Shown: positions 21,569-42,477, counted from the first letter of the stretch. The stretch: 64,000 nt of DNA from an uncultured Acidobacteriota bacterium (GCA_963836075.1 CAWIIB010000009.1:416001-480000); one strand, 5' to 3'. Notes: generated from the sequence alone by a model not told the origin. Made by a program: numbers and translations.

Positions 21569-22498
21569 TTACGGAGTTGCAGCGGTAACCGTGCAGGCGA
21601 CACTGTCCGTGTCACCGGCAGCCGAATAGGGCGGCTGATTGTATGGAGCAGGTGTAACATCCTCGACGACCAACTGGAAAAGATTGTCGCCGATCACCAT
21701 ACCAATCGCCGGAATGTTTTGGAGCCAGGAGGTGGAATAGCTCGCTCCTGACGGCAGGTTTGTAAAACCAGCCCGCCAATTCGGATACGATGTACCGCTG
21801 GCAAGGTCAACATCGATGCGGGCCGCAAAGCGCCGGGACTGTTCGAGGTACAGGTTTTCCAGATTGATCGTCAGTTGAGTGCTGAACGGAACAATACCTG
21901 TAGATGGTTCGCAATTCAGGGTGGCCCGCACCGTTGATGTCTTGGTCACGGTTGCTTCCAGGCCGGTATTCCCGAAGGCGTACCCGCCATAAACGACGAA
22001 GTCCAGCGACGAGCCGGCAGCTGTCGATACATCCAGATTGAAGGCACCGGCATCGGTTGTCTGCCAGAGCCATTCGGATCCTTGTCTTATCCCAACCTGC
22101 ATAAGTCCGGAATCACCGGCGAGGAACTGACCGACGACGCTGAAAGAACCGGACGCAGGCGCGGTCCAGCGAACCACAGACGGGGCATGGTTGGCGCGCG
22201 GATGCAGTGCGACGTCTCCTGGTTGAATTCCATGAATTTCGCCCCCGCTGTCGTTTCTCCACACTTCGGGAGGGTGGGCTTCCGGATACCACACCGGGCA
22301 GGTCCCATACACGATTTCGGTGCTGGTAAACGGTGTGAAGTAAGAAAAGTCGATGGGCATTTCACCATAGGTCCAGACACCATTCGGATTTCCATTATCG
22401 ATACTGAAATCCGCGCATACATCGTGGATCATGTCGGCTTTCACAGGCATCACCAACAAAACGGACAATACAACTACGACCGCTGCCGGCTTGTTCAT
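21569..22498 (-). CDS. Secreted protein with conserved C-terminal PAPYNQPPY domain
   Basis: Signal peptide ending VKA, beta-rich domain (DFSIDNGNPNGVWTYG), C-terminal domain at 21569-21934; RBS aggag. Confidence 0.85.
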   Translation of the reverse strand: MNKPAAVVVVLSVLLVMPVKADMIHDVCADFSIDNGNPNGVWTYGEMPIDFSYFTPFTSTEIVYGTCPVWYPEAHPPEVWRNDSGGEIHGIQPGDVALHPRANHAPSVVRWTAPASGSFSVVGQFLAGDSGLMQVGIRQGSEWLWQTTDAGAFNLDVSTAAGSSLDFVVYGGYAFGNTGLEATVTKTSTVRATLNCEPSTGIVPFSTQLTINLENLYLEQSRRFAARIDVDLASGTSYPNWRAGFTNLPSGASYSTSWLQNIPAIGMVIGDNLFQLVVEDVTPAPYNQPPYSAAGDTDSVACTVTAATP

Positions 22499-22915
22499 GA
22501 GGGACTCCTTCCTTTTTGCGAATCGTGCATCGTACTGGTTCGGGAACTATCATCAGGTTCAATCAATGGGGACGGGGATCGTCCAACCACCGGAAGCGGT
22601 CGCCGGAGCCGCCCCTCCCGCGGAAGTTCCCGACGATTCGAATCATTCGTCTACTCAGTAACGCGATGTTGAGATGGAATTCACGACAGGGGAATGCAGG
22701 TGTTTCCCGATGATTGACACGAAAAAGGGCAAAGGCTTGTACCGCGGCCCTTGGTGGCCGCGGATTTCAGCAATTTCTTAATCCCGCTGGCTGGCCACTC
22801 CCTCCGCATCATGGTGAAACTCATGTCGACTCTCTCTCGGTCTCCCCCTCAGGAACGGCCGTCCGTTCAAAGCTTGTATAATGAGGGATCATCCTTGATG
22901 GAAAATAATCCCTGA

Positions 22916-23500
22916 ATGTTCGATGGGGGATACAAGATTTTGGCAGCGACTCGTTCTACTGAATGGAAGGCCACGGTGGAGGCGCTCTATCGCAAGCACC
23001 ACCGGCTGCTGATCAGCAAGGCCTGGCAGTCCCTGAGGGACAAGAACCGGGTGGTGGACCTGGTTCAACAGGTGTTCACCAACCTGCTGGCCGCTGATCG
23101 AAATTTGGCTGGCAACGGCGAGGCGGAAAAATACCTCTTCACCGCCTTCCGCAACCTGCTGGTGGACCAGATCCGCCGGGGCAGCCGTTGGAAATACAGC
23201 TCGATCGAGGATGTCAATCCAAGCCGGGTGGCCTCCGACGCGCACCAGGAGGAGGAACTGATCAGCGAGCGGATGAGCGGTCGGGAACTGCCGCTGCCCC
23301 CGAAGCAGAAACGGGTCTTCGAAATGGCCTATTTCGAAGGGAAGAAGGACCGGGAAATTGCCGACGAACTGAAAATCAACATCCACACCCTTCAGCAGAG
23401 CCTGGTGCGCTCGCGACGGATGCTGGAGGCAATCCTGGTGGAGGAGCGCGGCATGAGCCGCGAGGAAGCGAGACGGCTCTTCTCACGCAAGAAATCGTGA
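22916..23500 (+). CDS. ECF sigma-70 factor
   Basis: Region 2 DLVQQVF...YLFTAFRNLLVDQIRR; region 4 LPPKQKRVFEMAYFEG...EIADEL. Confidence 0.88.
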   Translation: MFDGGYKILAATRSTEWKATVEALYRKHHRLLISKAWQSLRDKNRVVDLVQQVFTNLLAADRNLAGNGEAEKYLFTAFRNLLVDQIRRGSRWKYSSIEDVNPSRVASDAHQEEELISERMSGRELPLPPKQKRVFEMAYFEGKKDREIADELKINIHTLQQSLVRSRRMLEAILVEERGMSREEARRLFSRKKS

Positions 23501-23560
23501 ACCGCTGAAGAGCGCCGTGGCGCGGACGGTGGCACCAGCACACTGAGGACGATCAGGACA

Positions 23561-24298
23561 ATGAGCGAGCTTCGCGAACTCTACGATCAATTGAAGGACG
23601 AGCAAGCCGACTGCCCGCCCGCCGAGACGATACGGCGGCATACGGAGGGTCGCCTGGAAGGTGCTGAGGCCCGCCGGGTGGCTTTCCACCTCGCCGACTG
23701 TGCCAACTGTGTGGGAATGCTGGAACGGCTCGATCCGGCCGACCCGCCTGACCTGCCTGCCGACCTGGGCGATGAGATGGCCGCCGAGATCGGCCGTCGT
23801 CTCGGTTTCGACACCGAAGAGCGAACCACAGAAGCCGGCGGACGGCTCGGACGCCTGCTGGGATTCCGGGTGCCGGCTCTGGTGCCGCTGGCCGTGGCCG
23901 CCCTGGCCCTGGCTTTATTCTGGTGGGTGGGTGGTTCGGTTCAACCGGCTGGCGATGCTCCGGAGGTGATCCGCCAGCTGCCCATCTTCACCATCGACCA
24001 GACACTGGCCCGCTCCCCAGGGAATGCGGAAGCCGGGCCGACCGTCACCACCGGTGAGCCGTTCGTCCTGGAGGTCTTTCTCGACCGTCTCGACCTGGAG
24101 CCAGGGGATCGGTTGCGCTTCGTCGTCACCGACCCGACCGCTGCCACGGTGCTCGACGGCGATACCGTCGTGCTACTGGACTACAATGTTCGCTTGGCCC
24201 TCACCTTCAGCAAGCCCGGCACCTACCAGGTCATGCTCGAGGATGCCGGAGGCCGTGAAGTGGAACGGGTGACGGCCGAGGTGACAACGGCGGAATAG
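23561..24298 (+). CDS. Zinc-finger (zf-HC2) transmembrane anti-sigma factor
   Basis: CP...HLADCANC, one TM helix, C-terminal beta-sandwich-like region; directly after the ECF sigma. Confidence 0.85.
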   Translation: MSELRELYDQLKDEQADCPPAETIRRHTEGRLEGAEARRVAFHLADCANCVGMLERLDPADPPDLPADLGDEMAAEIGRRLGFDTEERTTEAGGRLGRLLGFRVPALVPLAVAALALALFWWVGGSVQPAGDAPEVIRQLPIFTIDQTLARSPGNAEAGPTVTTGEPFVLEVFLDRLDLEPGDRLRFVVTDPTAATVLDGDTVVLLDYNVRLALTFSKPGTYQVMLEDAGGREVERVTAEVTTAE

Positions 24299-24363
24299 GC
24301 CGTTGTCCCGGCAAGGCCACAAGAAGGGGATGATGAACCTCGGTTGCGGTGATGAATCCACTT

Positions 24364-27300
24364 CTATCCCGGATCGCCGAGCAGGATGAAGGCCGCCCAG
24401 AAGTGGGGATCGGCGAATGGCCGGTAGCCTCCCGGTGCCCCGCCCACCGCATCCCCGCCGGGACCACGATCGGTGTTGTCAGCCAACTCGGCGCCCATGG
24501 AGCGCAGCTCCCTGCCGGTCACGTTGGCCAACCACTGTTTCGCCTCCTGCAGCGCCAGGGCCCGGGGAACCCTCTGCCCGGGTCTGAACCGCCGGTCGCC
24601 CACAATACGCTGTTCGGGGAACTTTCCCAACACGTTCTCGTAAAAGCGCGTCATCAGCAGCATGGTGGCCTGGTCATTGACCTTCCATAGGCTGAGCAGC
24701 AGGCTGCGCGCCCCGGCGATGAACATCGCCTGGGAGAAGCCGAGATAACCTTCACCCCCTGTTTCGCGGCCCAGGGCCGTCTCACATCCGCTGAGCGTCA
24801 CCAGCTCAGCGTCCAGGTCCCAGGTGCGGACGATCTGTTCGCCGGTGAGCCGGCCGTCATACACCATGCCGCCGGCGGATTGATCTACCGTGCGGGCCAG
24901 GATCAGCGCGGACTGCAGGGCCATCCGGTCATTCATCACCCCATGGGTGGCCAGGTGGATCACCCCGAATTGTTTCAATGTGCCGGCGGTGGACAGCTCG
25001 GCCAGCCGTTGCTCACTTGCCTCCTGCCCCAGCAGAACTTCATTGCTGCTCTTTGATTCCCCTGCAGTCTGGAAGAGACCGGCAATGGTTTCCACCTCGC
25101 GGCGGCTCCCGGGAAGCCGCCGGAAAGACTGATGGCGAGTCGGGCCCAAAGCAGCATCCATTTCACGTTGCACAAGCAGTGCCTCGGGCATCGGCTCCTG
25201 GGACGGCCGCAGACCGAGGCGCCCGTGCGAAAGCTCGAGCTCATGGGTCTCGCCGTCCCGCCACACGGTGATTGGAATCACTGGCGGATTTTCGGTCGCT
25301 TCACCAGCCGGCTGCGCGTTTTGCACCTTTTGCATGACCGGTCCGAGATCCGCGGCCGATCCCAGCGATTCCCCGCCGTAGGACAGGAGTACATCCCCTT
25401 CCCGAATCCCGCCGCGGTAAGCGGCCGAGTCGTCCATCACCATGGCCACCAGCACACCATGATCCGGCAGTTCCGCCGGGGCGGTCTTGATTCCGGGAAC
25501 GCTGCCGAAATCGGGGTCGCCAAGGGCCAGGAGCCGCGGAGGATCGGCAGCCAAAGGCGATGCCGCAGGCGCCCGCTTTTCCCGCAGCCAGGCATACATG
25601 GTGCCCGAGGGGGCATAGCTGACGGTGAAAGACGCGTCCAGGGCCTCGATGGGGATTCCGGACATCGCCCCGGCCGGGAGAACGATCAGGTGCTCAACGT
25701 CACCGAGGTGCGGCAGAAGCGGGGCCAGTCTTTGGCCCTTTAAACGGTCGAGGATCGCCCGATTCCGCCTCAAGGCGGACCGCCGCTGGGGCCGGCCCAG
25801 TATCTGGCGCACCCGGCTGGTCAGTCCGTCATCCGCCTCCGTCCAGGCCCCGCCCTCGCCACTGCCGGCCAGCCGCACCCAGGCCGGTGCTCCGGTCCGC
25901 CGCACCGCGCAGGCCCAGTGCTCGCCGTTGGGGTCGGCAGCGTGCGGTCCGGCGGCGATGTCCACCCAACCCACCAGGGCCGCATTCTCCGGCAATGATT
26001 TCCGGATGCGGTCCAGCTCGAAGACCTCGCCGGCCGCGGGCCCATAGCGCTCAGCCAGTTCGGCCTGGAACCGGGCCAGCTCGGCTTGCAGCCGGACCTG
26101 CTCGCCGCGCAAACGCTCGAACTCGCCCCCAGCCGATTCCTCGGCTCCGACTGCCGCACCGAGTTTCTCCTCGAGCCGGCTCAGCTTGCCGATGAGGCTG
26201 CTCTCCCGGTCCCGCTCGGCAGCGGTGAGCGAACGGGCGTACCGCGCCGAGATAGCGTCCAGCAAACCGCGGGCCTGGTTCTCCTCGAAGGCCGACCAGG
26301 CCGGTCCTGGTTTTTTATTTCGTGCCAGGCAAGCGGCCAGCGGCGCCAGCGGTGAAACCTGCTCGGCAAAATAGGCCCGCTCCAGGCCACCGGCGCTGAC
26401 CCGCAGCCTCGCCGTCTCGAAAACCGCCGCCGACTCCCGCCACAGCGATTCGGCCGCCTGGTACTCGCCAATGCCGGCCTTCAACCGCGCCAGGGAGTTG
26501 AGGCTGAGCATCACGTCGGGATGATCGTCGCCCAATACCCGGCGGCGGCCGTCCAGCTCCTTGCGGAAGAATCCCTCCGCCGTCTGGAATTCACCGCGGG
26601 CCAGGTGGAGGTGCCCCATCCTGCCCAGCGCCGACAGGGTGCGGGGATTGTTCTGCCCCAAAGCCCGCCGGTAACCGTCCAGCGAATGCTGGTAGAGTTG
26701 CTCGGCCTCGCCCAAATTGCCGCGGGCCTCGAGCACCAGCCCGAGATTCCCCTGAGAGTCGCAGACTTCCGGATGCCCTTGTTCCAACACCCGACGGCGG
26801 GTGTCGAGCGCCTGGCGCAAGAGGGATTCAGCCTCGCCATACTCCCCGAGCCGGTAGCGCAGAATGCCGAGGCTGTCCAGGGTACGAAGCGTTTGCGGAT
26901 GTTCCGGTCCCAGCGCCTGCCGCCGGTTGCGAAGGGTGATCTCCTGCACTTCCGCCGCCTCTTCCACCCGCCCCTGGTATTCCAACAGCCGGGCCAGGTT
27001 GTGCATCGAGGAGAGCGTGTTCGGGTGCCGGTCGCCCACTGTCCGCCGGTCCCCCTCCAACGCTTCCAGCTGCAGCGCCTCCGCCTCGGCCATCCGGCCC
27101 TGGGCCTTGAGCAGGCCGGCCAGGTTGAGGATGGTGGTCAGGGTCTGCGAGTGGTCTTCACCCAGGACTTTTCGGTTGGTGGTCATGGCTTCACGCATGA
27201 GCACTTCGGCTTCGGTGAACCGGCCCTGCAGTTTGATCACCAGGCCCAGGTTGGCGATGGTTGACAATGTCGAGGGATGCTCATCACCCAGCAGGCGACG

Positions 27301-28179
27301 GTTGGTCTCCATCGCCGTCCGGAGAAATGACTCCGCCTCCTCGTACTGGTTCAACTGGACCAGCAGGGCCCCAAGGTTGTTGCAGGTGCTGGCGGTGCTG
27401 CGGTGCTCCCTCCCCAGAAATCGCCGACGATCCTCCAGGTTCTTGCGGTAGATCACTTCCGCTTCGGCGTATCGCCCCATTCTGTCCAACAGGTGGCCCA
27501 TGTTGTTTTGAAAAGTCATGGTGGCCGGGTGGTCTTCGCCAAGGACCACCTGGGAGTTTTCCATGGCCTCGCGATAGTATGGTTCGGCCTTTTCCAGTTG
27601 GCCCATTCTTTTGTAAAGCGCCCCGAGACGATAGACCGAATTCAGTGTTTTTTCATGATCCTTGCCAAAGACCTGCCGCCGGCCGGCAAGCGCCTTTACA
27701 AACAGCGGCTCCGCTTCTTCGAATTTGTTCTGCATATTTAAGGCATGCCCCAGTGCATTCATGGCCGCGAGCCGTCGCGGGTGCTTCTCATCCAACAACC
27801 GTTCCCAACCGGCCAGGGCCTGCCGGAGCAGAGGCTCAGCCTCGGCGTACTTGCTTTCATGCTCGGCGAGGGCGACACCGAGATTTTGCAGGGCCTCGAG
27901 GGTCAGGGGATCGTCGTCTCCCAGCGCCCCGCGCCGCAGCTCCAGCTGTTCGCGGCACGGCTCGATGGCCTCGATGGCATTACCCGCCTCGACCAGCTCC
28001 ACCATCTGCGCGGTGAGCGCTTCGTCCCGCTGTGCGTCCTCCTCAACGAGCAGGCCCACCACCGGCAGGATGTCTTCCACTTCAGACGCCGGTTGAGCAT
28101 CGGCCCGGCAAAACCAGCAGGGATTTAAAAAGGAAAGGAACAGGGAAAACGCCGCCAGGGGGATGAGCGTCTTTTTCAT
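24364..28179 (-). CDS. Exported TPR-CHAT (caspase-like) protease with PDZ insert
   Basis: Signal peptide MKKTLIP...ADA, many LGxxHPxTL TPRs, IHLATHG and LVTLSGCET dyad, SAAYRGGIREGDVLLSY PDZ-like segment, PHFWAAFILLG end. Confidence 0.92.
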   Translation of the reverse strand: MKKTLIPLAAFSLFLSFLNPCWFCRADAQPASEVEDILPVVGLLVEEDAQRDEALTAQMVELVEAGNAIEAIEPCREQLELRRGALGDDDPLTLEALQNLGVALAEHESKYAEAEPLLRQALAGWERLLDEKHPRRLAAMNALGHALNMQNKFEEAEPLFVKALAGRRQVFGKDHEKTLNSVYRLGALYKRMGQLEKAEPYYREAMENSQVVLGEDHPATMTFQNNMGHLLDRMGRYAEAEVIYRKNLEDRRRFLGREHRSTASTCNNLGALLVQLNQYEEAESFLRTAMETNRRLLGDEHPSTLSTIANLGLVIKLQGRFTEAEVLMREAMTTNRKVLGEDHSQTLTTILNLAGLLKAQGRMAEAEALQLEALEGDRRTVGDRHPNTLSSMHNLARLLEYQGRVEEAAEVQEITLRNRRQALGPEHPQTLRTLDSLGILRYRLGEYGEAESLLRQALDTRRRVLEQGHPEVCDSQGNLGLVLEARGNLGEAEQLYQHSLDGYRRALGQNNPRTLSALGRMGHLHLARGEFQTAEGFFRKELDGRRRVLGDDHPDVMLSLNSLARLKAGIGEYQAAESLWRESAAVFETARLRVSAGGLERAYFAEQVSPLAPLAACLARNKKPGPAWSAFEENQARGLLDAISARYARSLTAAERDRESSLIGKLSRLEEKLGAAVGAEESAGGEFERLRGEQVRLQAELARFQAELAERYGPAAGEVFELDRIRKSLPENAALVGWVDIAAGPHAADPNGEHWACAVRRTGAPAWVRLAGSGEGGAWTEADDGLTSRVRQILGRPQRRSALRRNRAILDRLKGQRLAPLLPHLGDVEHLIVLPAGAMSGIPIEALDASFTVSYAPSGTMYAWLREKRAPAASPLAADPPRLLALGDPDFGSVPGIKTAPAELPDHGVLVAMVMDDSAAYRGGIREGDVLLSYGGESLGSAADLGPVMQKVQNAQPAGEATENPPVIPITVWRDGETHELELSHGRLGLRPSQEPMPEALLVQREMDAALGPTRHQSFRRLPGSRREVETIAGLFQTAGESKSSNEVLLGQEASEQRLAELSTAGTLKQFGVIHLATHGVMNDRMALQSALILARTVDQSAGGMVYDGRLTGEQIVRTWDLDAELVTLSGCETALGRETGGEGYLGFSQAMFIAGARSLLLSLWKVNDQATMLLMTRFYENVLGKFPEQRIVGDRRFRPGQRVPRALALQEAKQWLANVTGRELRSMGAELADNTDRGPGGDAVGGAPGGYRPFADPHFWAAFILLGDPG

Positions 28180-28309
28180 CACACACCTCGTGCAGTAATT
28201 CGGAAATTGAATCGAGGCGAAATGTGTTGGTGTGTCAATGGTATTCGAAAGGTGGGGGAAAAGCGAACGGCCCGCCGGCACCCCGAAGGGCGCCGGCGGG
28301 AAATGCAGG

Positions 28310-31300
28310 TCAGGGCACGGTGACCTGCAAAAATGCGGCATCAGAGTCCACGTCACCCGAGGGCGGGTATGGCGGCTGGTTGTACGGCGCCGGGGTCACG
28401 TCCTCGGCCAGCAGGACAAAGCGATTTTCGCCCTTCAGCATCTGCAGCGCCGGGATGTTCTGGTTCCAGGAAGCGGTAAAGCTCTCCAGCGGGGCGATGT
28501 TGGTGAAGCCCGCCCGCCAGTTGGGGAAGTAGCCGCCGCCGGCCAAAGTCACATTGATCCGACTGGCGATCCGCCTGGTGATCCCCTCGTACTGGTTGGT
28601 CAGCGTGGCCTGCATGTTGGTGGTGAATGGAGCAACCCCCTGGGCCGGCGTGCAGGAAAAGGAGCCGGAAACGGTGGGCAGGCCGCTGCAGATCTCCTCG
28701 TGCTGCACCGCCGGGGTCATGGTCGCCGGGCTCTGGGTGTAGATGCTGAATACCGGGGACTGGGAACTCATGGCATAGGCGAATCCGGATGGGTATTCAA
28801 TGTTGTTGCCGCCTTCCACCTCCCAGATGTAGGGGCAGTCCCCCACCCTGCCGTTACGGTCGGTGTGGAGGAGGAGGATATCGTCTGCCCCAGCACCGAA
28901 AGCCGATGTATAGCCGGCCGCAGCGTACCCGCCATCCGCAGTCTCCAGCACGCCGAGGAGAGCGGTGTCACCGTCACCGTTCACATGATGTATCCACTGC
29001 GGTATTCCTTCGCCGTCAAACTTGGCCAGCACCCCATTGGTATCGAGGACACTGGGGGGCAGGACATACCCAGCGGCGATGATCCCGCCGTCAGCAGTGG
29101 CCCTAAAATCGAAATAGCTCTCACTATCCGGATCGCCGGCTGTTCTGGCCCACATCCTCGCTCCGGTGTCACTGTTGATCTTGACAAAGAACGCGTCTCC
29201 CCCTGCCTGGCCACCCAGGACATAGTGGCCGTCGGGCATGGTGATGATCCCGTAAAAACCTAAGTTATTCCCCACGCCATGCCCACTGCTCCAGCCCACA
29301 TCACCATTGGCGTCGAGCTTGATCACCTGGGAATAAATCGTGGTACCGGCATCGTAGACGCCGGCCAGCAGAATGCCACCGTCAGTGGTACCAATGGCGC
29401 ACCTGGCATTTTCCGTTCGGTTCGTCGCACCCACCGTACGGATCCAGCCGATATCGCTGGCCGCATCGATGGTGAAGACCAGCGCGTCGTATTGATCGAC
29501 TCCCGCAACGCCTGTCGAACCGGCCACAATGTAATCACCATCAGGCATCCGGCGGATCGATCTGAGCACCTCGCTTCTCGGGCTGCCAACGGTTTTGGCC
29601 CAGTTGAGTCCACCCCCGGCGTCGAAACCCATCACCAGTGCATCGGCCTGGCCCACACCAAAGCTGTAAGTATATCCCACCACAATACAGCCATCATCAT
29701 CGGTCACCACCAGATCCAGAGGCGAGTCATAGTCATCCCCGCTGGCCAGGCTGGCCCATTGGAGATTGCCCAGCGCATCGTATTTGATCACCATGACACC
29801 CTGGGACGTACCGGAAGCCGCCGAGGCGACGATGAAACCCCCATCAGAGGTCTGGCCAATGGCCCGTCCCTCATCACCGGCCCACTCACCACTGGCCGCC
29901 AGCCAGTATCGCTTCTCCGGCGGGGAGTATTCGCAGACCAAGCGGGTTGGGCCAGTAGATGAAGGCCCAGTAAAGTTCCGGATCCTCCACACTCAACGCC
30001 GGAGTGGTGATTGTCGGTTCTGTTGCGGTAACCGTAAAGGAGGGGTTGGTGACATCGGGATAGCATCCGGCGCCGTATTCGCAGCCAGGAATGAGACCGT
30101 CCCGGTTGGCCGTCACCAGCAGCATGCCGAGGGGATCGGAGGTGTAATAATGGAAAGTGGCCGTCTCGCCGACCATGAAAACCCCGCCACCGGGCAGTCC
30201 GGTCACTGAATTGGCCGTTTCGGCCTCCTCTCCGCCAAACACCCGGGCCCATTGGTAGGCGCCGTACTGGTCGAAGGTGACCAGGAAGGCATCGGAATCA
30301 CCGAATCCGAAATTGTATGTGGTGCCGGCCACCGCGTAGCCGCCCTCGGCCAGTTCGCAGACCGCGTTTCCGTAGTCACCGTTGGGCGACCCGCCCACGG
30401 TGGAAGCGGTGAGCAGGGAGCCGTTGGCGTCGAAAATAGCAAAAAGCAGGTCCGATGCCCCGCTGCCCTCGGCGGTCTGGCCGGTGAGCACCAGGTCACC
30501 GTTTGAGGCCTCGAGGGCGTCCCGGCCCTGGTCCACGTACTGTTCACCCAGGGTCTCGCCCCAGAGCAGGCCGCCGCTGCTGTCGAAACGGAGGAGGAAG
30601 GCGTCATCGTAACCGGCGCCAAAACTCGAGGTGCTGCCGGCGCATATAAAACCGGCATCCGAGGTGAGCCGGATGGAAGCGATGGAGTCATCCTGCGGAC
30701 CGGAGATCAGCGAGGACCAGCTAAACGTGCCGTCAGCCTGGAATGCCGCCAGGATGGCATCGGCATCCCCGCTGCCGAAACTGTAGGTGTAGCCGGCCAC
30801 CACCAGGTCCCCATCGGGTGTCTCGCAGACACCGGCGGCGCCGTCAGCGCTGCTGCCACCGGCCACACGGGACCATTGCGGGATTCCCGATCCGTCGAAC
30901 TTTATCAGGTAGATGTCGTTGCCACCGGCGCCAAGCATGGTGGTTTGACCAACAATGACGAAGCCGCCATCCGATGTTTCGCATACATCGTAGGCCATGT
31001 CCCAGCCGTCTCCGGCAATGCGGGCCCACTCCACCACTCCCTGGTTGTTCATTTTGACCAGGAGGAACTGTATGGTCCCGGAGTAATCATTGTAGTACAT
31101 GCCGGCCGCCACGGCCCCTCCATCGGAAGTGAGAATACCCTTGCGCCCAAAGTCAGCAGCGATGTCACCAAAGGAACTCATGAAGTAGTGGATCTCGTCA
31201 TCGCGGCTGCCGGCCAGATGCCGGGAATAGGTATCGGTAACATCCTGGAAGGCAATAGCGGCATTGCGAACCGCCAGGTCTTCGCTGACGTCGCGGGCAG

Positions 31301-31415
31301 ACACCGGGGCTGACCCGGATATCGAGTCGGCATGCAACAAGCCCGTGGAGAGCCAACCGTTGCAGCACATCAGCAAACAGGTGAGAAAAAGGCTGATCAG
31401 ATGTTTAGTCTTCAT
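28310..31415 (-). CDS. Large secreted beta-propeller repeat protein with C-terminal PAPYNQPPY domain (frameshift near 29.9-30.0 kb joins two ORFs)
   Basis: Signal peptide from MKTKHLIS; repeated TxDGGxxxAG/FGxGxxD units in both overlapping ORFs; C-terminal domain at 28310-28675. Confidence 0.8.
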
Positions 31416-31779: not shown

Positions 31780-31918
31780 CCGCACGGTTCGTGGGGACGG
31801 AGATTATACGTTCGCGGTGGAGGATCCCACTTCGAGCGAATATTCCTGTCGACTCTGCGTATATCAATATGATATCATTTCAATATCATGTTCGGTTGGA
31901 GCCGAAAAGGAGGAACAG

Positions 31919-32878: not shown

Positions 32879-32891
32879 TTCCGAGGAACCA

Positions 32892-33107: not shown

Positions 33108-33192
33108 TGTTCTCGATGGAGCGTGCCGCCAGTTGCCTGTTGGCGACCTCGTACTGCTCGCGACGCGACCAGGCACGGGACATTCGCTCTCT

Positions 33193-33382
33193 CTAATCCC
33201 CCCCCGCAACCGCGCCGTCTCTTCCTCATCAAGCTGGAGGGTCTTCTCGTCGAGGGCCACGCCGTAGGCTTCGCGGGCCTGGTCGAGGGAGATGATGCCG
33301 TTGACGAAGCCGTCGGTCTGGGGGTCGGTGCCCGAATAGTCGAAGACGATGGAGCGGTCCTTGACCTCGATGGTGACCTTGA
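33193..33382 (-). pseudogene. Hydantoinase B remnant (copy E): 3' end fused to an internal segment
   Basis: 33193-33301 matches 43337-43443; 33296-33382 is identical to 44221-44307; junction at shared tgccgt. Confidence 0.92.
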
Positions 33383-33710
33383 GTGAACCGGGCCATGGAA
33401 CTGCTCACCGAGGAGGCGCTGGCGGAAGCGCTGCGAGGCTGTGTCTGCCCCGCGAAGGACGATCCCCACGGCCTGAAAAAACCTCCAGGAGCCACGTGGG
33501 ACAGCCTGACGGCCGTTCCATTTTCACAATGCAAAATATCCCTCCCGAACATTGTCTACTATTGTGGTAGCCTTGCCGGATAAAAATATAAAGAGTGCTC
33601 CCCATTTCCGTTGGCGAGCCTGGAGGAACAGCTGATACCGGGACCACCCGTGATCCGGTTATTCCTTGCACCAAACGTCGAAAACAGTTCAAGACTGAGG
33701 AGAGAGAGAA

Positions 33711-34703
33711 ATGCAGATGAGAAGCCGGTTCGTTCGCGGTATTCCATTCCTGGCGGTTCTGTTCACTTCCCTGTTCGCCTGTGCAACGGGCACCGTAGTG
33801 GCCGCGGAAAACTACCCCCCCGATGCTGTGGGGGTCCGGTTCACCATCGATCCGGCGGCACTGTCGGACGTACACAACACCGCGGAACTGGCCGATGCCC
33901 TGCACCGGGAGCTGAAACTGGAGGCAGCATCGCCCCTGGGTTTCGAGGTGGTTGTTCACATGGTTGGCAACGTCTACCAGGGCCGGGACCAGCAGCCCCA
34001 TTCCGAGGGCAGCGGCATCATGGTGACTCTGGAGAAAGGCACACCGGTCAGCGGCCGGATCAAGGACCTGCCGTTCCACACCTACGGAGACTTCAGCGAA
34101 AGCGAGGCATGGGATTTTTTCAGGGGAAAAATCCAGGAAGCTTTGATGTATTCCATGAACTCGAGCGGCGCCTTCAAGGCCGACGATGAAGGCACCGTCT
34201 GGCTCACCGTGGCTGAAGTGGCGGATGGCGCCAGCAGTTTCACGCCGGACGGCAGCAGAATGATCCTGGAACTGAGTGCTGAATTTTCGTACCGGGACGG
34301 CTCCAAGTTTGGCAGCAAGACGCCGCCTGAAGGGTATCGACAGGAGCTGAAAACCGTTCAGATCGTGCTCTCACCCGCAGAAGTGCAGACCAGAGAAAAA
34401 CCTGTGGTGGAAGACGTGCCCGCGGCCAGTACGGCGGCAGCCGAAACGGACGGCATTACAGCGGTATACGGCTACGATGAAAGCGGATTACGGATCGAAA
34501 AGAAGGACGGCCAGTATGTCATGTCGGATATCCGGAAATCGCCTCCGGAATATCTGCCGCTGACGTCCATCGGAGAGAATCAGTTCAGCGTTGACTACTA
34601 CGGCGAGCCCGCGAAGCTCAAATTCTCGCTGGATGACAAGGGGCAGGCTTTTTCCATGTCCGTCGAGCAGCAGGGCCACACGATAAAGCTGCCGCGAAAG
34701 TAA
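33711..34703 (+). CDS. Hypothetical exported protein / lipoprotein
   Basis: 330 aa ORF, hydrophobic N-terminus ending LFAC. Confidence 0.7.
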   Translation: MQMRSRFVRGIPFLAVLFTSLFACATGTVVAAENYPPDAVGVRFTIDPAALSDVHNTAELADALHRELKLEAASPLGFEVVVHMVGNVYQGRDQQPHSEGSGIMVTLEKGTPVSGRIKDLPFHTYGDFSESEAWDFFRGKIQEALMYSMNSSGAFKADDEGTVWLTVAEVADGASSFTPDGSRMILELSAEFSYRDGSKFGSKTPPEGYRQELKTVQIVLSPAEVQTREKPVVEDVPAASTAAAETDGITAVYGYDESGLRIEKKDGQYVMSDIRKSPPEYLPLTSIGENQFSVDYYGEPAKLKFSLDDKGQAFSMSVEQQGHTIKLPRK

Positions 34704-34839
34704 GGTCCGGAACATCTGGGATGCTCTGGAACCGGAAGGGTGAGAATATGCCGAAAATGAGATGGTGAATCCTGCTGGTCCTGCTCGTGATGTGTGCCTG
34801 TGGGGGCACTGCTGCTGACGGAGACGCGGAGACCGCGCG

Positions 34840-35215
34840 GGAAGCGGCGCTTTGCCCCCAGGTGCTCGAGGATGCGGCGGATCACCTCGGACTGCGCCGT
34901 CGAGATGAACGAGACGACCTTCACCGAGCCGTCCACCGAGAAACCGCTGTGCTCCCAGCCCAACATCTCGTCGCGAAGGCCGCAAGCTCAGACGCTTTCG
35001 GCGCACCATCAGGTCGAGTACCCGCCTGGTGAACAGCTGCTCCAGCACCTCGATATCCCCCTGCATGTCGAAGGGCATCGGGCGGAAGAAGCCTGATGCG
35101 TCAAAGGCCCCGTCGGTGGCCAGGGCATGGAGGTGGATATGAGGGTTTACCCGGTCCCCGAACCGCTGGGGCGTCACCACCATCCCCACCCGGAGTTCGT
35201 CATGGACCAGACCGG
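34840..35215 (-). mobile_element. IS91-family (rolling-circle HUH) transposase remnant, frameshifted and internally deleted
   Basis: QRFGDRVNPHIHLHALATDG, WEHSGFSVD, and C-terminal SFI...VIRRILEHLG. Confidence 0.8.
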
Positions 35216-35279
35216 CGCGGTAGAAATCGTTAGGTCGCCTCCACCGCTGAGCGGCAGAGGCCGGTGGAGATTCGGCGCT

Positions 35280-35432
35280 TCAGCGGCTCGCCGCAGTCAC
35301 CGAGGAGACGAGCCCGTCGAGGGTGCCGGCGATCTCTTCGGCCAGCGCCAGCGAGATGGCGTTGCGGCGTCCGGGATCGTTGAGGGTGACCACGGCCACG
35401 CGGTTGTGAGTTTCGATGCGGAGCAGGTTCAT
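35280..35432 (-). pseudogene. Enoyl-CoA hydratase/isomerase N-terminal fragment
   Basis: MNLLRIETHNRVAVVTLNDPGRRNAISLALAEEI..., stop after 50 aa; strong RBS ggaggtg. Confidence 0.7.
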
Positions 35433-35690
35433 TCGTTCACCTCCCTCGGTGCCGTCTTCCGGTCCATCAGCAGTTTATCGGAAAACAGTGGCCGGGGGGA
35501 ACGCCGAAAAAAGGCTCCACGCTCTCTCGGTCCGGATATCGAAGGGGACTGCAGGAGCATCATTGACCCCTGAACAGGTAATCTCTATAATTTTTATATA
35601 TTATTTCGAGCTACGTTTCATGAATCGTCCGGTTTCCCGGTTGACAGCTCCCGTTCGGTGCTGCTGTCGATCGCAGAAGGGTTGTCCGCA

Positions 35691-38370
35691 ATGGCTCAAT
35701 GCGGCTCATGCAAAGCGGAACTCGCAGACAGCGCAATGATATGCCTGAACTGCGGCCACCCGGTGGACGAGGCGGATCTGGTGCAGCGTTCCGACCCCAC
35801 GGCCACTGTCGGCTCGTCGGCCTCGTCCTCCTCCGCCTCCGAGACCGAGGTGCGATTTGCCCCCGGTACGCTGCTGGCCGATCGATACCGTATCGTCGGC
35901 CGTCTCGGCAAGGGCGGGATGGGTGAGGTCTACCGTGCCGACGACATGAAGCTCGGCCAGCAGGTGGCGTTGAAATTCCTGCCCGAGCGATTCAGGGAGG
36001 AACCGTCCCTCCTGACCCGTTTTCTCCACGAGGTGAAAATCGCCCGGCAGATTTCCCATCCGAGCGTGTGCCGGGTCTATGATGTCTTCGAGTACGAGGA
36101 CCAGCACTTCCTCTCAATGGAATATGTTGATGGCGAGGACCTCCGTTCACTGCTCCGGCGGATAGGTCGACTATCCGAAGACAAGGCACTGCAGATCGCA
36201 CGGCAGCTTTGCGCCGGGTTGGCGGCGGCCCATGACAAGGGTGTGCTGCACCGGGACCTCAAGCCGGCCAACATCATGCTGGACGGCAGCGGCCGGGTGC
36301 GTATCACCGATTTCGGCCTCGCCGCCATGGCCGGTGAAATACAGAAGAGCGATCTCAAATCCGGCACTCCGGCTTACATGGCGCCCGAACAGCGGGCGGG
36401 CCGGGAGGTCTCGATCGCCAGCGACATCTACACTCTCGGCCTGGTGCTGTTCGAACTGTTCACCGGCAAGCCTGCCTTCGCGGCGGCCACCCGGACCGAA
36501 CTGGAAAAGAAGCAGCTGCAGGATGTGACCACCCCGTCCAGCCTGGTGCGGAGTATCGATCCGGCCGTGGAGCGGGTCATCCTGGCCTGCCTCGCCCGGC
36601 ATCCGGCCGAACGGCCTTCGTCGGTCCTGGCGGTGGCCGCGGCGCTGCCCGGCGGGGATCCGCTCGGTGAAGCGCTGGCTGCCGGTGAGACGCCGTCCCC
36701 CGAGATGGTCGCCGCCTCGATGGTCCGGGGCGGCCTGCGCCCGCTCTTGGCCTGGGCCACGCTGGCCGGCATTGTCGCCTGTGCCGTGATCCTGTTCCTG
36801 CTCGCCGGGAAAGGGAAGGTGACCTCCCATGCGCCGCTGACCAAGGCCCCCCAGGTCCTGATTGACGAGGCACAGAGCATCCTGGCCGGTGCCGGTCTGA
36901 ATACTGAACCGGCCGACTACCTCTGGGGATACATCCGGAACGACCAGGCACTCGATCATTTCGAGGAACTGAAAAGCGCCGATCGCTGGGACGGTCTCGG
37001 TGAGCGGGAGCGCTCGAGCCTTTTCTTCTTCTACCGCCAGAGCCCGGTGCTGCTCGAACCGCTCAGTGTGGTTTCGAACCGGATGAACCTGGAGGATCCG
37101 CCGACGACGACGCCGGGCATGGCGACGGTGAGGCTGGATACCGAAGGCCGGCTGGTCCGCATGGAGATCCTGCCGCCGGAGAAGGATGAAGGGGACGATG
37201 AGCCGCCCGGCAAACCGGACTGGGCCCCGCTTTTCGCCGCGGCCGGGATCGACATGGAGACACTGCAGCCGGTGGAGCCGGTTTGGAATCCACCCCTGTA
37301 CTGCGACTACCGGGCCGCCTGGGAGCTGGCCGGGGCCTCACCGGGGATCAGGGTAGAAGCCGCCTCCTATCGCGGAAAACCAATCTACTTCAGGGTCGTG
37401 GCGCCGTGGGAGAAGCCGTTCGAACCTGCCGCCCTGGAGAAGCCGCGCGGGGAGCGGCTCGCCCAGACCGGTTTCATCCTGCTGGTCACGGTGGTGCTGG
37501 TCGGCGGCTTCCTGCTGGCCCGACGGAACCTTCGTCTTGGCAGGAGCGATCTTCGCGGTTCCTACCGCATCGCCACCGTCTTCGTCCTGATCCACATGCT
37601 GGCATGGCTGCTCTACGCCAAGCACCTGGCGTCCATCGACCTCGCCTTCTGGGGCCTGATCGCCACCCTGGCCCAGACCTTCTTCGAAGCGCTGCTGATC
37701 TACACCTTCTACCTCGCCCTGGAACCGTACATTCGCCGCCGCTGGCCCGACACCATCATCTCCTGGACCCGGGCGCTCTCCGGCCGGTTTCGTGACCCGC
37801 TGGTGGGCCGGGACGTCATGTTCGGCTGCGGCCTCGGGCTGGCCGCAGCGCTGCTCTGGAAGGTCGGTCAGCTGGCGCCGCCGTATTTCGGCAAGATCCC
37901 GCGCCGGCCCGACTGGGTGACGCTCAACGCGCTCAACGGGAGCCGTTTCGCCGTGGGGGAACTGCTCGACAGTCTCGTCCACGCCGTCGTGCCGGCGATG
38001 GCGCTGCTGATCATCCTGCTGCTCGTCTCGCTGCTGGTGAAGCGATTCTGGGTCACCGGGATCATCGTGACCCTGCTGGTCTTGCTGCTCAACCTGCCCG
38101 AGATCGAGTACCTGGTTCGACCTGTTCGGGATCGCGGTGACCATGGGCCTGGTGGTCTTCAGCCTGGTCCGTCTCGGCCTGCTCTCCGCGACGGTCATCT
38201 TCGGCGTATCGGCAGCGGTGAACGAACTGGTGATCACCTCCGACCTGACCCACTGGTGGGCCACCGGCACCATCGTCACCCTCGGTGCCACTCTCGCCCT
38301 CGCTTTCTATGGCTTTTACATCGCCCTGGCCGGCCGGCCGATGATCGGCTCCGACTGGCTGGAGGGATAG
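35691..38370 (+). CDS. Ser/Thr protein kinase with N-terminal zinc ribbon and C-terminal multi-TM domain (frameshift at ~38120)
   Basis: CGSC...CLNC, LGKGGMGEVY, HRDLKPAN, DFG, GTPAYMAPE; TM array continues in ORF 38137..38370. Confidence 0.9.
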
Positions 38371-38399
38371 CAGACCGAACGACACTCCCGGGGGATACC

Positions 38400-38666
38400 A
38401 TGAAAATACTGAGAACCGTGCTGGCAACGCTGTCCCTGCTGGCGTCCACCTTCGGTCTGGCGGCCACATCCCCGGCCGACAACGCCGGCCTCGCTTCCCG
38501 CATCGCCGCGACGGCCTCCGACCGGAAAGCCGGTTTCATCGAGGCACGTCGCTGGTTCCACCGGTATTCGGAACTGTCGAACCATGAGTTCGGAACCGCC
38601 GGCCAGGTGAGGGCGAGACGATTTAAACAACAGTGCGGATGGGTTTTTTCTGGAGGTACAGGCTGA
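38400..38666 (+). pseudogene. M20 amidohydrolase N-terminal fragment
   Basis: Signal peptide then RRWFHRYSELSNHEFGTA (cf. RRxxHxxPELSxxExxT), then similarity lost. Confidence 0.6.
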
Positions 38667-38803
38667 TGAGAGACGAGGCGGGCGCGCACAGCCCCTGGCT
38701 TCGGATATTCCGCGGTGCGATGGAGGTGCAGCGCGAGGTCACGGTGCGGGAGACGGCCCGCTGACCACTGTTCCCGGCGCTGCGTACGCGTGGAAAAAAA
38801 TCG

Positions 38804-38845
38804 AAAAATGGGGACTGGCACGCCTTGGCGCCTGTCCCCATTTTT
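38804..38845. repeat. REP-like hairpin / bidirectional terminator
   Basis: aaaaatggggactggcacgccttggcgcctgtccccattttt; near-identical inverted copy at ~42514. Confidence 0.75.
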
Positions 38846-38895
38846 ATTTAAGTGCCTTTCGGATCTTCTCCGGGGTGATTGCATCACCCCCGATT

Positions 38896-39288
38896 TCAGA
38901 CGAGGACGATCGCTGCCCGGTGGCCGGCGGCCGAGGCGAGACGGGCGTCCCTGGTGATCAGAGGCGCTTCCAGGACTTCCGCCAGGGCCAGATGGACGGC
39001 GTCGTATGCGGTGGCGTTGTTCCGCAGCTCCCAGACCCGGAACAGAAACAGGTCGTGGGGATAGCGGGTCAACGGCAGGTCGAGCAGGTCCTCGAGCGCC
39101 TGGCGGCCCCGGGACGGTTTGAGTTCACCCGCGAGAGAATAGCGCCGGAGCACCTGGGCCACCTCGAGGTCGAGGAGGTGCGGGGCGTGAAGCGTCTCGC
39201 CGTCGGCGAAGATGCGCTCGCTGATCCGCTCCGCCGCCGGGGTGTTCAGCAGCACCTCTAAAACCGCGGAAGCATCGACGACAATCAC
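38896..39288 (-). CDS. vapC: PIN-domain toxin (VapC family)
   Basis: MIVVDASAVLE, APHLLDLEV, TAYDAVHLALAE, LITRD. Confidence 0.93.
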   Translation of the reverse strand: MIVVDASAVLEVLLNTPAAERISERIFADGETLHAPHLLDLEVAQVLRRYSLAGELKPSRGRQALEDLLDLPLTRYPHDLFLFRVWELRNNATAYDAVHLALAEVLEAPLITRDARLASAAGHRAAIVLV

Positions 39289-39515
39289 CGCCCGTCCCTT
39301 TCGTCCCTGACTGCCCGGGCCGGCGGCACGCCGGTGATGACGGCTTTGCGGCCGCGCAGGCGAAGTCTCAGTTCACGCGGGGATGGACGTTCCATCAGGC
39401 GCTCCACCTCGCCGAGGAGGTAGTCGGAGAGGGGCAGACCCTCGAGCGCCGCCCTGGCTTTGAGCAGGCGGTGCAGCTCGTCCGGCACGTTTCGAATTTG
39501 GATCATCTTGGACAT
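39285..39515 (-). CDS. FitA-like RHH antitoxin
   Basis: MSKMIQIRNVPDELHRLLKARAA...LSDYLL; upstream ttgaca...cacatgtg...tgtcaa palindromic region. Confidence 0.88.
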   Translation of the reverse strand: MSKMIQIRNVPDELHRLLKARAALEGLPLSDYLLGEVERLMERPSPRELRLRLRGRKAVITGVPPARAVRDERDGR

Positions 39516-39885
39516 GTTGACAACATATTCACATGTGATCCACATGTCAAGCGGAGGTCCTCAGGGACGACATCAGCCGGCCATTTTCTCCCCGGGAATT
39601 CCCGTGGGATGGCAGCCGGCTGGGCTGGAGAGGAAGGGGGCGGTGGCACAGCCGTGGCATACGGTCCGAAAGCGGGCAGGCAGGGTTGTATGCGCGTACC
39701 GCCAGGCAGGGAGATCCCCGCAATCGGTGCGATTTCGGACTTGCCAAATTAAACTATAAACCATAAATTTGTATGTGATCTATCAGATGCAGGCATTCTA
39801 ATCATCAAAAGATACTGTTCGTTGTTGCTCACTGCCATAAGGTGGCCTTGAATATCGATCCTGCCGCCGCAGGGAGGCCTCGTCA

Positions 39886-42477
39886 ATGGGTATACGATCA
39901 CGGTTGGGCATCTGCTTTCACCTGCTGGCGATGGCGCTTGCGTTGTCCACCTCGGCGGAGGCAAGGCTGTTCGATGCGGCGATCGCCTTACCGGTCGAAA
40001 GCCGAGCGTTTGCTGTCGATGACCTGGATGGGGACGGGATTCAGGATCTTGCGGTGTTCCGTGAATGGACATATGACGAGGAACTTGTCGGGATTTGTTT
40101 CGGCCGGGGCGACGGCACATTTCAATATCCCGTGGATTATTCCATCGGCGAAGCAGGGCCCATCTCTGGAACTTCGATGATCACCGATGACCTGGACCAG
40201 GACGGTGACTCTGATGTGGCCGTCGTGACATACCGCGTATACGACACGAGGAGCAATATCTGGGTGCTGCTGAACAACGGCGACGGCACTTTTGCCGTTG
40301 CCGGTCACTACCGGCTTTTCACTGAAGCCAGGATGGTGAAATCCCTCGACCTCGACGGCGACGGACATCGTGACCTTGCGTTGGCCCACTCGGATGGCGG
40401 TGCGTCGGGGCAGGAAGGGCGGCTGTCGGTCCTCTTTGGCCGGGGAGATGGTACTTTTAAGAAGGCCATAGCTTACGACCTCGATTTCGAAGCATTGAAC
40501 TTTGCCGTTGGCGATTTCAACGGTGACGGTGCACAGGACCTCGTGCTCAATGAGTTCCATAACGACATGATCATGGTGCTGCTGGGCAATGGCGACGGCA
40601 CATTCCAAGGCGGTGTCGAGTACCAGGTGGGTGATCATCCCTGGGGCGTGGCTGCCGGCGACCTGAACGCTGACGGCTGGACTGACCTGGTCGCGGCCAA
40701 TCGAAGTGGCGACACGGTTTCAGTGCTGATCGGGCTTGGGGACGGGAGTTTTCTACCCGCCGAACATATTCCTGTTGCCGAGAACCCGTGGTCCATCGAA
40801 GTCTTCGATATCGACAATGATCAGATACCGGACCTGATCACAACGTGTAGCCATGAAAGCGGTGGTGATCTTTCGTTTTTAAAGGGCGAGGGTGATGGTA
40901 CATTCCAGGAAGGTGTGCTGGTGGAAACCGGTAGTTCAAATATCTCCTTTTGCGTTGCGGACTGTGACGGCGACGGCAATCCGGATTTTGTTGTGGACAA
41001 CAATGTTTTTCTTGTCGGTGGAGACGTGTCTGTCATCCTGGGCCATGGTGACGGCACTTTCGCTACAGCGTCTTCCAACAATGCATTTCCGGGTCACTGT
41101 ACAGGCGATGTCGGTGACGTGAATGCCGACGGCAATCCCGACGTGGTCCTTCCGGCTGAAGACGTGGGCAAGGTAGATTACCAGATCATTGTTTTGCTGG
41201 GCAGGGGGGACGGGACATTCGGCAGCAAAGTCGGTTCCGTGGCCGGCAATGGGTTCAGTTCATTGGTCGTCGAAGATTTTAATCGAGACGGTTATTCCGA
41301 CATTGTTGCGTGCTTCAGGTACGATCCCTACCTAACGGTTCTGCTGGGCCAGCGCGACGGCCGAGTACAGGAGATCGCGGAAATCGAGATTCCTGACGAG
41401 CCGCTATCCCCGATCATCACCGATGATCTGGACGTTGACGGCAACTTCGATCTGATCGTGCGGACGTATTCCGATTACTTTGTACTCCTGGGCCATGGAG
41501 ACGGATCCTTTGAGCCGGCATCGGCGCTGGGGTTGGGTACATATAGGGGAACTTGCGATTTTGGCGACCTGAACCATGATGGAAACCCTGACCTGGTCCT
41601 GGTCAATCACAGTGGCGACAGCGTTTCGGTGATGATGGGGCACGGCGACGGCACGTTCGCCGATGAAGCGAACTACAGCGTGTTTGCTCCTGAATCCGTG
41701 GCCATCGGCGATCTGGATGAAGACGGGAACCCCGATCTGGCCGTGTCATGTGAATACACGACCCTGGGGTTCTTGGTTGGTAACGGAGACGGTTCGTTCC
41801 AGGACGCGGTGGAACTGGAATATCCCGACGTTGCGAACCCGGAGATGATCGATCACGTCGGTGATGTTGATCTTGATGGACACCTCGATCTGGTAATTCG
41901 CTGCTCCAATTGGGTCGCGGTTCTGCTGGGCGACGGGGACGGCTCGTTCCGGCCATTTGTATATGGCATAGAGAATAGTGACACTGTCGAGTCCATGGCC
42001 ATGATTGATCTGGATAATGACGATGATCTCGACCTGGTTGTTTCACGAGGATGTTCTTCCTGGAAGATCTCGGTGCTGATCAACAATACGATGAGCCGGA
42101 CCATCAACGGCGACTACACGATATCTCCGCTTGCCGGTACGCTGCCCTTCGAGACGAGCCACCAGGTCTACCTGAGAAACATGCTCCATGGCCGCGATGC
42201 GACACATACCCGCACGGCATCGGTGGCCATCGACGTCGAGATCGGCAGCGGCGCCTGGTTCAGCAACTGGCGGGCGGGGTACACCAATCTGTCGCCGAAC
42301 GAGGTCCTCTTCCGGAACTGGCCCAACCAGTTCCCTGCCGGCCCCACCCTTGTGGGCACGAACAGTTTCCATTTCCGGGTGATGGACACCACGCCGGCGC
42401 CATACAACCAGCCGCCCTACCCGCCGTCCGGGGATGCGGCGACACGGGTGAGGACGGTTATCGCGACAATACCCTGA
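39886..42477 (+). CDS. Secreted FG-GAP/VCBS repeat protein with C-terminal PAPYNQPPY domain
   Basis: Signal peptide ending AEA; many DxDGDGxxDL / LGxGDGTF repeats; C-terminal domain at 42100-42477. Confidence 0.9.
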   Translation: MGIRSRLGICFHLLAMALALSTSAEARLFDAAIALPVESRAFAVDDLDGDGIQDLAVFREWTYDEELVGICFGRGDGTFQYPVDYSIGEAGPISGTSMITDDLDQDGDSDVAVVTYRVYDTRSNIWVLLNNGDGTFAVAGHYRLFTEARMVKSLDLDGDGHRDLALAHSDGGASGQEGRLSVLFGRGDGTFKKAIAYDLDFEALNFAVGDFNGDGAQDLVLNEFHNDMIMVLLGNGDGTFQGGVEYQVGDHPWGVAAGDLNADGWTDLVAANRSGDTVSVLIGLGDGSFLPAEHIPVAENPWSIEVFDIDNDQIPDLITTCSHESGGDLSFLKGEGDGTFQEGVLVETGSSNISFCVADCDGDGNPDFVVDNNVFLVGGDVSVILGHGDGTFATASSNNAFPGHCTGDVGDVNADGNPDVVLPAEDVGKVDYQIIVLLGRGDGTFGSKVGSVAGNGFSSLVVEDFNRDGYSDIVACFRYDPYLTVLLGQRDGRVQEIAEIEIPDEPLSPIITDDLDVDGNFDLIVRTYSDYFVLLGHGDGSFEPASALGLGTYRGTCDFGDLNHDGNPDLVLVNHSGDSVSVMMGHGDGTFADEANYSVFAPESVAIGDLDEDGNPDLAVSCEYTTLGFLVGNGDGSFQDAVELEYPDVANPEMIDHVGDVDLDGHLDLVIRCSNWVAVLLGDGDGSFRPFVYGIENSDTVESMAMIDLDNDDDLDLVVSRGCSSWKISVLINNTMSRTINGDYTISPLAGTLPFETSHQVYLRNMLHGRDATHTRTASVAIDVEIGSGAWFSNWRAGYTNLSPNEVLFRNWPNQFPAGPTLVGTNSFHFRVMDTTPAPYNQPPYPPSGDAATRVRTVIATIP

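Follow-up and report, generated by a model that had tools for sequence, protein, structure and literature searches.

Introduction

C-terminal sorting and anchoring tags define the way bacterial surfaces are built, and the tags described earlier, namely LPXTG, PEP-CTERM, the dockerins and the C-terminal domains (CTDs) of the type IX secretion system (T9SS), have each led to dedicated machinery. The T9SS CTD is an immunoglobulin (Ig)-like β-sandwich of about 70–100 residues, and Acidobacteriota is not known as a T9SS phylum. Here we describe a domain that is encoded three times in a 64,000-nucleotide stretch of DNA from an uncultured Acidobacteriota bacterium (GCA_963836075.1 CAWIIB010000009.1:416001-480000; in the following “the window”, with positions counted from its first letter). 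The domain is a previously unnamed all-β family of about 121 residues, restricted to a narrow group of uncultured bacteria and found there on many unrelated Sec-exported proteins. Because it holds the position of surface-anchoring or secretion tags in other bacteria, it probably marks a previously undescribed protein-sorting route.

Results

Domain copies in the window

The three copies are located at 21569-21934(-), 28310-28675(-) and 42100-42477(+). They are alignable over 121–125 columns, 39 of which are invariant and include the motifs NWRAG and TPAPYNQPPY, and in each case the stop codon coincides with the end of the domain. Pairwise identity ranges from 38 to 50% (50% and 38% relative to the first copy). 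A six-frame scan of the window (58–72% G+C) with a hidden Markov model (HMM) built from the three sequences recovered each copy with E 1e-62 to 1e-65, followed by the next unrelated frame at E>3, a gap that places the similarity far beyond chance. The common C-terminal domain that an initial annotation had proposed for three window proteins is thus real. The same annotation had drawn attention to an invariant core spelled with different codons in each copy, and this was reproduced as well: the 30 nt of the TPAPYNQPPY core contain 3–7 synonymous differences between copies, and at 35 of the 62 residues that are identical between the first two copies (A and B) the codons differ. Such codon differences within an invariant core indicate that the copies are old and kept by selection at the protein level. 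A recent local duplication without wider meaning would explain why three copies and a decayed fragment occur within 21 kb, but it is contradicted by the modest identity, by the saturated synonymous differences, and by the members found elsewhere (492 representatives, as well as other parts of the same contig; see below). We consider this explanation refuted and exceedingly improbable.

The first carrier gene, P0001 (21569..22498(-)), encodes a secreted protein of 309 aa with a signal peptide and the domain at 21569-21934 (HMM E 2.5e-65). Its N-terminal part belongs to no known family, and none of the proteins fetched is related to it. In the ESM Atlas this part fell into unnamed clusters (0.93–0.94) that are commonest in Acidobacteriota, which is a lead only, and an AlphaFold2 prediction of full-length P0001 made without an alignment (pLDDT 37.1) was uninformative on the “small beta domain” initially suggested for it. 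The gene P0004 (39886..42477(+)) encodes a secreted FG-GAP repeat protein of 863 aa (PF13517, E 8e-78, 13 stretches) with the domain at 42100-42477, and homologues with 69–84% identity have the identical architecture. The proposed combination of a signal peptide with differing cargo therefore stands in part. It holds for the N-termini of P0001 and P0004, which are signal-peptide-like as read by eye, and for the FG-GAP cargo of P0004; the middle gene, however, is not one frame (see below).

No match for the domain was obtained when the three window copies were compared with Pfam-A, NCBIfam 20.0 and PDB sequences. Single scans of 93 members at E<=1 gave no Pfam or NCBIfam family with more than one matching member, and the PDB sequence search gave 0 matches for the three-sequence profile and a best E of 0.16 for the 93-sequence profile. 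Named matches in the protein collection are labelled “hypothetical protein”, in none of them is the tail covered by a precomputed Pfam domain, and a full-text literature search yielded, at the level of its search results, nothing on this domain or on the motif PYNQPP. An assignment to CARDB by the ESM Atlas was rejected, as the best cluster of that name scored 0.84, below the level that counts. Moreover, the CARDB, PKD and fibronectin type III (FnIII) Ig-like Pfam families match 0 of the 93 members, and the likeness to them is one of generic fold only. The initial view that the domain is not a recognised family is in agreement with all of these searches.

Distribution and position

Searched with the profile, a set of 1.84 billion representative proteins yielded 492 members at E<=1e-3, 447 at 1e-10 and 326 at 1e-30, so that the family extends far beyond the three window copies. 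Among the best 150 representatives, the domain ends at most 10 residues from the C-terminus in 147. One copy is present in 142 of these proteins and two copies in eight, the last copy being terminal; seven of the eight pairs are directly in tandem, and P0013 has about 175 residues between its copies. Internal occurrence is rare (three of 150: P0050, P0085 and P0087), and the domain is then followed by G-[LI]-[DT]-[EP] and 199–334 residues of unknown kind. All 59 additional matches from word-based searches of the protein collection are terminal.

The GTDB species genomes contributed 108 confirmed stretches. The best 80 of these, which form 72 loci, all derive from two metagenome-assembled genomes (MAGs), CBESOE01 and JAQAZP01, the latter labelled Acidobacteriota bacterium by NCBI. 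Six-frame matches in the 72 loci end 0–7 residues before a stop codon in 101 of 103 cases, and the other two are partial fragments. The data searched from the two MAGs amount to about 716 kb, and the fetched parts, with matches covering <90 model positions dropped, contain at least 39 and at least 53 distinct copies, respectively, both of which are lower bounds. The window's own contig of 3,516,849 bases encodes, outside the window, at least three further carriers that have a signal peptide (P0193, P0195 and P0200). Once 5'-open and partial matches were dropped, 80 distinct complete frames were left, and a crude hydrophobicity rule that considers ATG starts only assigned a signal-peptide-like N-terminus to 64 of them. 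Taken together, these numbers favour the initial annotation, which had looked for many paralogs with the domain strictly at the C-terminus of signal-peptide proteins.

Predicted structure and conserved features

An AlphaFold2 model calculated from the alignment A2 of the 93 member sequences is an eight-strand all-β sandwich (pLDDT 97.4, pTM 0.85). Comparison with the PDB by Foldseek gave generic Ig/FnIII-like sandwiches only, with E 1e-4 or weaker for the 46 matches listed, and no confident match to a characterised domain. The best neighbour is RbmA of Vibrio cholerae (4kkr; TMq 0.74, rmsd 2.7), and others are factor XIII barrels, macroglobulin domains, CARDB (3idu; TMq 0.59) and FnIII-like domains of GH3 enzymes. 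The TPAPYNQPPY..GD segment forms a long loop preceding the last strand.

Cys8 is present in 74 of the 93 members and Cys114 in 73; both occur together in 71, and they are replaced together. This covariation points to a disulfide joining the first and last strands and thereby to folding outside the cytoplasm, so that on sequence grounds a Cys8–Cys114 disulfide and extracytoplasmic folding are probable. The P0001 copy has both cysteines and the P0004 copy is without the pair. Pro is the last residue in 87 of 93 members; the non-terminal copies shown, from the three proteins with an internal domain and from the upstream position in four proteins with two copies, lack it. With a median pI of 4.5 and a net charge of -3 the domain is acidic, and its sequence ends in ...C-T-V-T-G-x-A-P with no hydrophobic helix, which confirms that it has neither the transmembrane (TM) helix nor the basic tail of PEP-CTERM- or LPXTG-like signals. 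The junction with the cargo shows a weak P-T-D | T-V preference, and no conserved cleavage site was detected there among copies from the two MAGs.

The fold raises the question of an ordinary Ig-like adhesion or ligand-binding module, i.e. a CARDB/FnIII-type spacer or glycan binder, that has no sorting role and owes its frequency at C-termini to domain shuffling in one lineage. The generic structural neighbours (RbmA, CARDB 3idu, macroglobulin and GH3 FnIII-like domains) are consistent with such a module, as are the tandem and internal copies and, at a score below the level that counts, the CARDB-named neighbours in the ESM Atlas. Moreover, the conserved aromatic and polar residues W53, W70, Y98, Y103, N99 and Q100 could form a ligand site. 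Still, no jelly-roll of the carbohydrate-binding-module type was among the top Foldseek matches. Shuffled binding modules are usually found at varied positions, whereas the present domain is 98% terminal and has a position-specific terminal Pro. Its cargo, described next, ranges over proteases, cytochromes, a kinase, a phosphatase and propellers, too wide a mixture for a single substrate, and in homologues its slot appears to be held by anchoring or sorting tags. We therefore regard a plain binding module as quite unlikely.

Cargo and the tail of C25-peptidase homologues

The two MAGs provided 91 distinct carriers, of which the shortest 72 were scanned for cargo, and no Pfam family was found over the tail in these 72. 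Peptidases are represented by 10 proteins (three C25 with propeptide, two S8, two M14, and one each of M28, M23 and trypsin-like), beta-helix/PMP and FG-GAP by nine proteins each, BNR/sortilin-like repeats by six, multihaem cytochromes c by two and cupredoxin by one. Another 11 proteins carry other cargo, including CotH+LTD, an arylsulfotransferase, a purple-acid-phosphatase-like enzyme and GH-like domains, and 24 belong to no family. Carrier cargo also includes PAD_porph, a kinase, a phosphatase and propellers. The domain is present on multihaem cytochromes c with MtrC/MtrF-like matches and on a plastocyanin-like copper protein (L030 91-1263(-), L034 4715-6688(-) and L065 11514-12230(-)), which hints at electron-transfer proteins kept at the cell surface.

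The tail slot was compared within one cargo family. The cargo portion of a single C25 carrier served as the query, and among its best 120 homologues nine have this domain at their end and 95 have dockerin-like tails according to an ad hoc motif; several of the 15 “other” tails look dockerin-like by eye. Eight C25-cargo proteins were scanned against Pfam and NCBIfam for tail identification. Dockerin_1 was matched above the cut-off in P0232 and below it in P0222 and P0235, and P0228 gave dockerin_GC (26.5 vs. a cut-off of 29). P0289 was matched by MYXO-CTERM (18.8 vs. 20), and P0313 both by the T9SS type A sorting domain (18.7 vs. 23) and by FlgD_ig (17.6 vs. 27). A choice_anch_J-like region stands directly before the tail in six of the eight, always at 20–29 bits where the cut-off is 30. 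It spans residues 687-837 in P0216 and is followed there by this domain at 850-969. In five of the seven homologues it precedes tails that are dockerin-like (P0232, P0228, P0235), MYXO-CTERM-like (P0289) or of a Cys-rich TM-plus-basic type (P0334), and P0313, with the T9SS-like tail, and P0222 had no choice_anch_J match. Most of the dockerin-like and choice-of-anchor matches fall short of the curated cut-offs, though they are mutually consistent. As judged from these sequences, the comparison suggests that within one cargo family the domain occupies the position taken by anchoring or sorting tails in other lineages. This speaks in favour of the earlier proposal that it fills the slot of known sorting or anchoring tags.

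The same data bear on an alternative in which the domain directs export and attachment in the manner of the T9SS CTD. Folded in the periplasm, it would be recognised by a translocon of the outer membrane and then cleaved off, and the cargo would be released or covalently attached, by machinery that is either a highly diverged T9SS or new. The terminal position (147 of 150 and 59 of 59), the dozens of carriers per genome with Sec-type N-termini, the β-sandwich fold and a cargo that includes C25 with propeptide, PAD_porph, S8 and M28 are all in line with it, and the C25 homologue P0313 ends, below threshold, in a T9SS type A/FlgD-like tail at this very position. Conversely, 0 of 93 members match T9SS sorting-domain models, the family profile aligned with the P0313 tail by hhalign reached a probability of 0.08% (for a single-sequence target), and no T9SS CTD structure is among the 46 Foldseek matches listed. 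Two-copy (eight of 150) and internal (three of 150) cases are odd for a signal, the junction preference is weak and without a conserved cleavage site, and no T9SS component, the core proteins SprA, PorV, PorU and GldKLMN included, was seen within the window. The C25 carriers do match a PorU model, but through the shared peptidase domain only (45–80 bits vs. a cut-off of 420). On balance, an analogue of the T9SS CTD appears a real, if doubtful, possibility.

Genomic surroundings of the carriers

For an analysis of neighbouring genes, the 492 crude gene calls made in the 72 loci were clustered all against all, which returned only multi-TM sulfatase-like genes and an FG-GAP family. Both were rejected as partners, as they read as abundant paralogue families with no fixed arrangement. 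The former are large proteins that combine an N-terminal part of multiple TM helices with a sulfatase/phosphoethanolamine-transferase-like domain; they occur in 13 of 72 loci, 1–5 genes from carriers (e.g. L007 9338-11539(-)). The same type is encoded in the window at 59005-61392(-), and a soluble sulfatase (11107-12555) and a radical SAM/SPASM gene (15119-16597) are also present there. The FG-GAP-like repeat family of ~700–1,080 aa is without the domain, often ends in ...VAAGRF, and accounts for 29 genes in the loci (e.g. L021 6590-9079, L069 6408-8912 and L050 4386-6878). Thirteen of its genes adjoin a carrier gene, eight of them immediately downstream on the same strand. A second shared “tail” noticed in the loci turned out to be FG-GAP repeats reaching the protein end, and PEP-CTERM-like tails were found in 0 of the 492 crude gene calls.

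The gene in the middle of the window, annotated initially as one open gene at 28310-31415(-), did not hold up as such and is interrupted by a frameshift near 29,930-29,950. The upstream frame, 29886..31415(-), encodes a signal peptide (MKTKH...) and a first β-propeller module; the downstream frame, 28310..29992(-), encodes a second β-propeller module and the domain (28310-28675) and is without a signal peptide of its own. The database gene model of the downstream piece, P0178 (494 aa), accordingly starts inside a propeller blade and has no signal peptide. Propeller repeat matches are weak (delta-60, SBBP and DUF5122), and the “TxDGG propeller” assignment has only sub-threshold repeat matches in the Pfam and NCBIfam scans. 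The position of the break follows from a homologue in L072, which continues in one frame across the corresponding junction. This read-through indicates an ancestral gene for a single protein of ~1,040 aa. The L072 homologue is itself frameshifted elsewhere, at L072 3968-3987 beside a C/G run, so that both genes could be pseudogenes or both could contain assembly indels. A decayed fragment of the domain at 21398..21502(-), covering HMM positions 37-71 only (domain E 1.2e-6), sits within an open reading frame (ORF) at 21068-21523 directly downstream of the P0001 gene; this ORF matched no Pfam or NCBIfam family.

The frameshifted carrier is followed on its own strand, after about 130 bases, by a gene for a secreted TPR-CHAT protein whose CHAT domain contains an inserted PDZ domain (24364-28356(-), likely start Met at 28179). 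A PDZ-bearing protease beside a conserved C-terminus is suggestive. No CHAT-containing family was present among the neighbour families found in at least three of the 72 loci, for which cluster representatives only were scanned against Pfam. Between two carrier genes, an extracytoplasmic function (ECF) sigma factor (22916-23500(+)) and a membrane anti-sigma-like protein (23561-24298(+)) are encoded. A PIN-domain gene (38896-39288(-)) and a fragment matching Y2-type transposases (34488-35189(-)) also lie between carrier genes, and several ORFs of no family were noted in the 32–35 kb stretch. Two Ser/Thr kinases and a Band-7 gene are near carrier genes. Further along, 50717-61392 resembles a surface-polysaccharide cluster that includes a B12-radical SAM gene, the membrane sulfatase-like protein, an FG-GAP protein without the domain (52203-53522), a Polysacc_synt flippase (55847-57181) and a PMT_2-like glycosyltransferase (57090-58964).

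Discussion

In summary, the domain is best read as a C-terminal sorting or anchoring module, most likely a docking domain that is retained on the mature protein, a tentative preference that we hold with slightly less than even confidence. The sorting or anchoring reading of the initial annotation is supported as a candidate: the checks proposed there all spoke for it, and nothing that it had named as contrary evidence was found. Retention is favoured over removal since the disulfide and the terminal Pro look built to last, since the domain is sometimes duplicated or internal, like binding modules and unlike cleavable signals, since dockerin-like modules mostly take its place in cargo homologues, and since the junction has no conserved cleavage site. 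As a mechanism, carriers with signal-peptide-like N-termini would be exported and the domain, as modelled, would fold into a compact sandwich. After export, the Cys8–Cys114 disulfide suggested by the covarying cysteines would staple it. The NWRAG strand and the TPAPYNQPPY..GD loop may then hold the cargo on a common envelope component, by analogy to dockerins and other modules that bind at the cell surface, and the near-invariant terminal Pro may shield the exposed end from carboxypeptidases, which are themselves secreted with the same tag.

Several observations weigh against retained docking. The strict terminal position and the conserved last residue are equally compatible with an export signal, and the cargo resembles the typical T9SS spectrum, i.e. 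C25 (gingipain-like), PAD, S8, M28 and beta-helix proteins. The acidic character of the domain makes simple electrostatic binding to anionic envelope polymers unlikely. There was no recognisable sorting machinery in the 64-kb window and no conserved partner near carriers in the window or in the 72 loci, and the searches identified no binding partner, ligand or machinery. It should also be noted that the signal-peptide count follows from a crude rule, that the count of dockerin-like tails depends on an ad hoc motif, and that the tail and choice-of-anchor matches in the C25 family are largely sub-threshold.

A more far-reaching option is that the domain is the tag recognised by an as yet undescribed pathway for export or surface attachment at the outer membrane, evolved independently in a lineage without T9SS and equipped with its own translocon and processing enzyme, for which a C25 peptidase that itself carries the tag would be a candidate. 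We consider this unlikely at present. Any dedicated system behind the domain is hypothetical, because no machinery was seen in the window or in the 72 loci.

The domain tags at least 39–53 secreted proteins per genome, among them multihaem cytochromes, proteases and beta-helix proteins active on polysaccharides. With a family model, annotation could pick out the exoproteome of the lineage, and the model would provide a handle on the partner or machinery via phylogenetic profiling. Small, confidently modelled and probably disulfide-stapled, the domain may also suit display or pull-down applications.

Comparison with known systems

The FnIII-like domains of RbmA and the CARDB domains are the best fold matches and, as extracellular-matrix or cell-surface modules, resemble the domain in their setting. 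They differ in sequence (12–15% identity, Foldseek E 1e-4 to 1e-3, no Pfam match) and are not restricted to the C-terminus. The PEP-CTERM, MYXO-CTERM and LPXTG signals appear to share with it the “choice of anchor” slot, where P0289 has its MYXO-CTERM-like tail (18.8 vs. 20 bits). These signals consist of a motif, a TM helix and a basic tail, whereas the present domain is soluble and acidic and ends in Pro.

The T9SS CTDs (type A, TIGR04183/PF18962; type B, TIGR04131) are folded β-sandwiches, as the domain is in its model, at the extreme C-terminus of diverse Sec-exported cargo, with dozens per genome, and the cargo overlaps in C25, PAD, S8, beta-helix and FG-GAP proteins. Unlike them, the domain is longer, with 121 aa and eight strands, has a Cys pair and a terminal Pro, and is two-copy or internal in 11 of 150 proteins. 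The models TIGR04183/PF18962 and TIGR04131/PF13585 and the FlgD_ig surrogate gave no match to the four window proteins at E<=1 and none to the 93 members.

Dockerins (type I, PF00404; GC-type, NF041540) also sit mostly at the C-terminus of many different secreted enzymes of one organism, with an occasional duplicated or internal copy. They are built from paired EF-hand calcium loops, in contrast to the all-β model obtained here, and neither PF00404 nor NF041540 matches the window proteins or the 93 members. Dockerins bind a cohesin-type partner on a scaffold or on the surface, and no cohesin-like partner is known for this domain. Still, dockerin-like tails hold the same position on close C25 homologues, some of them labelled Planctomycetota by NCBI.

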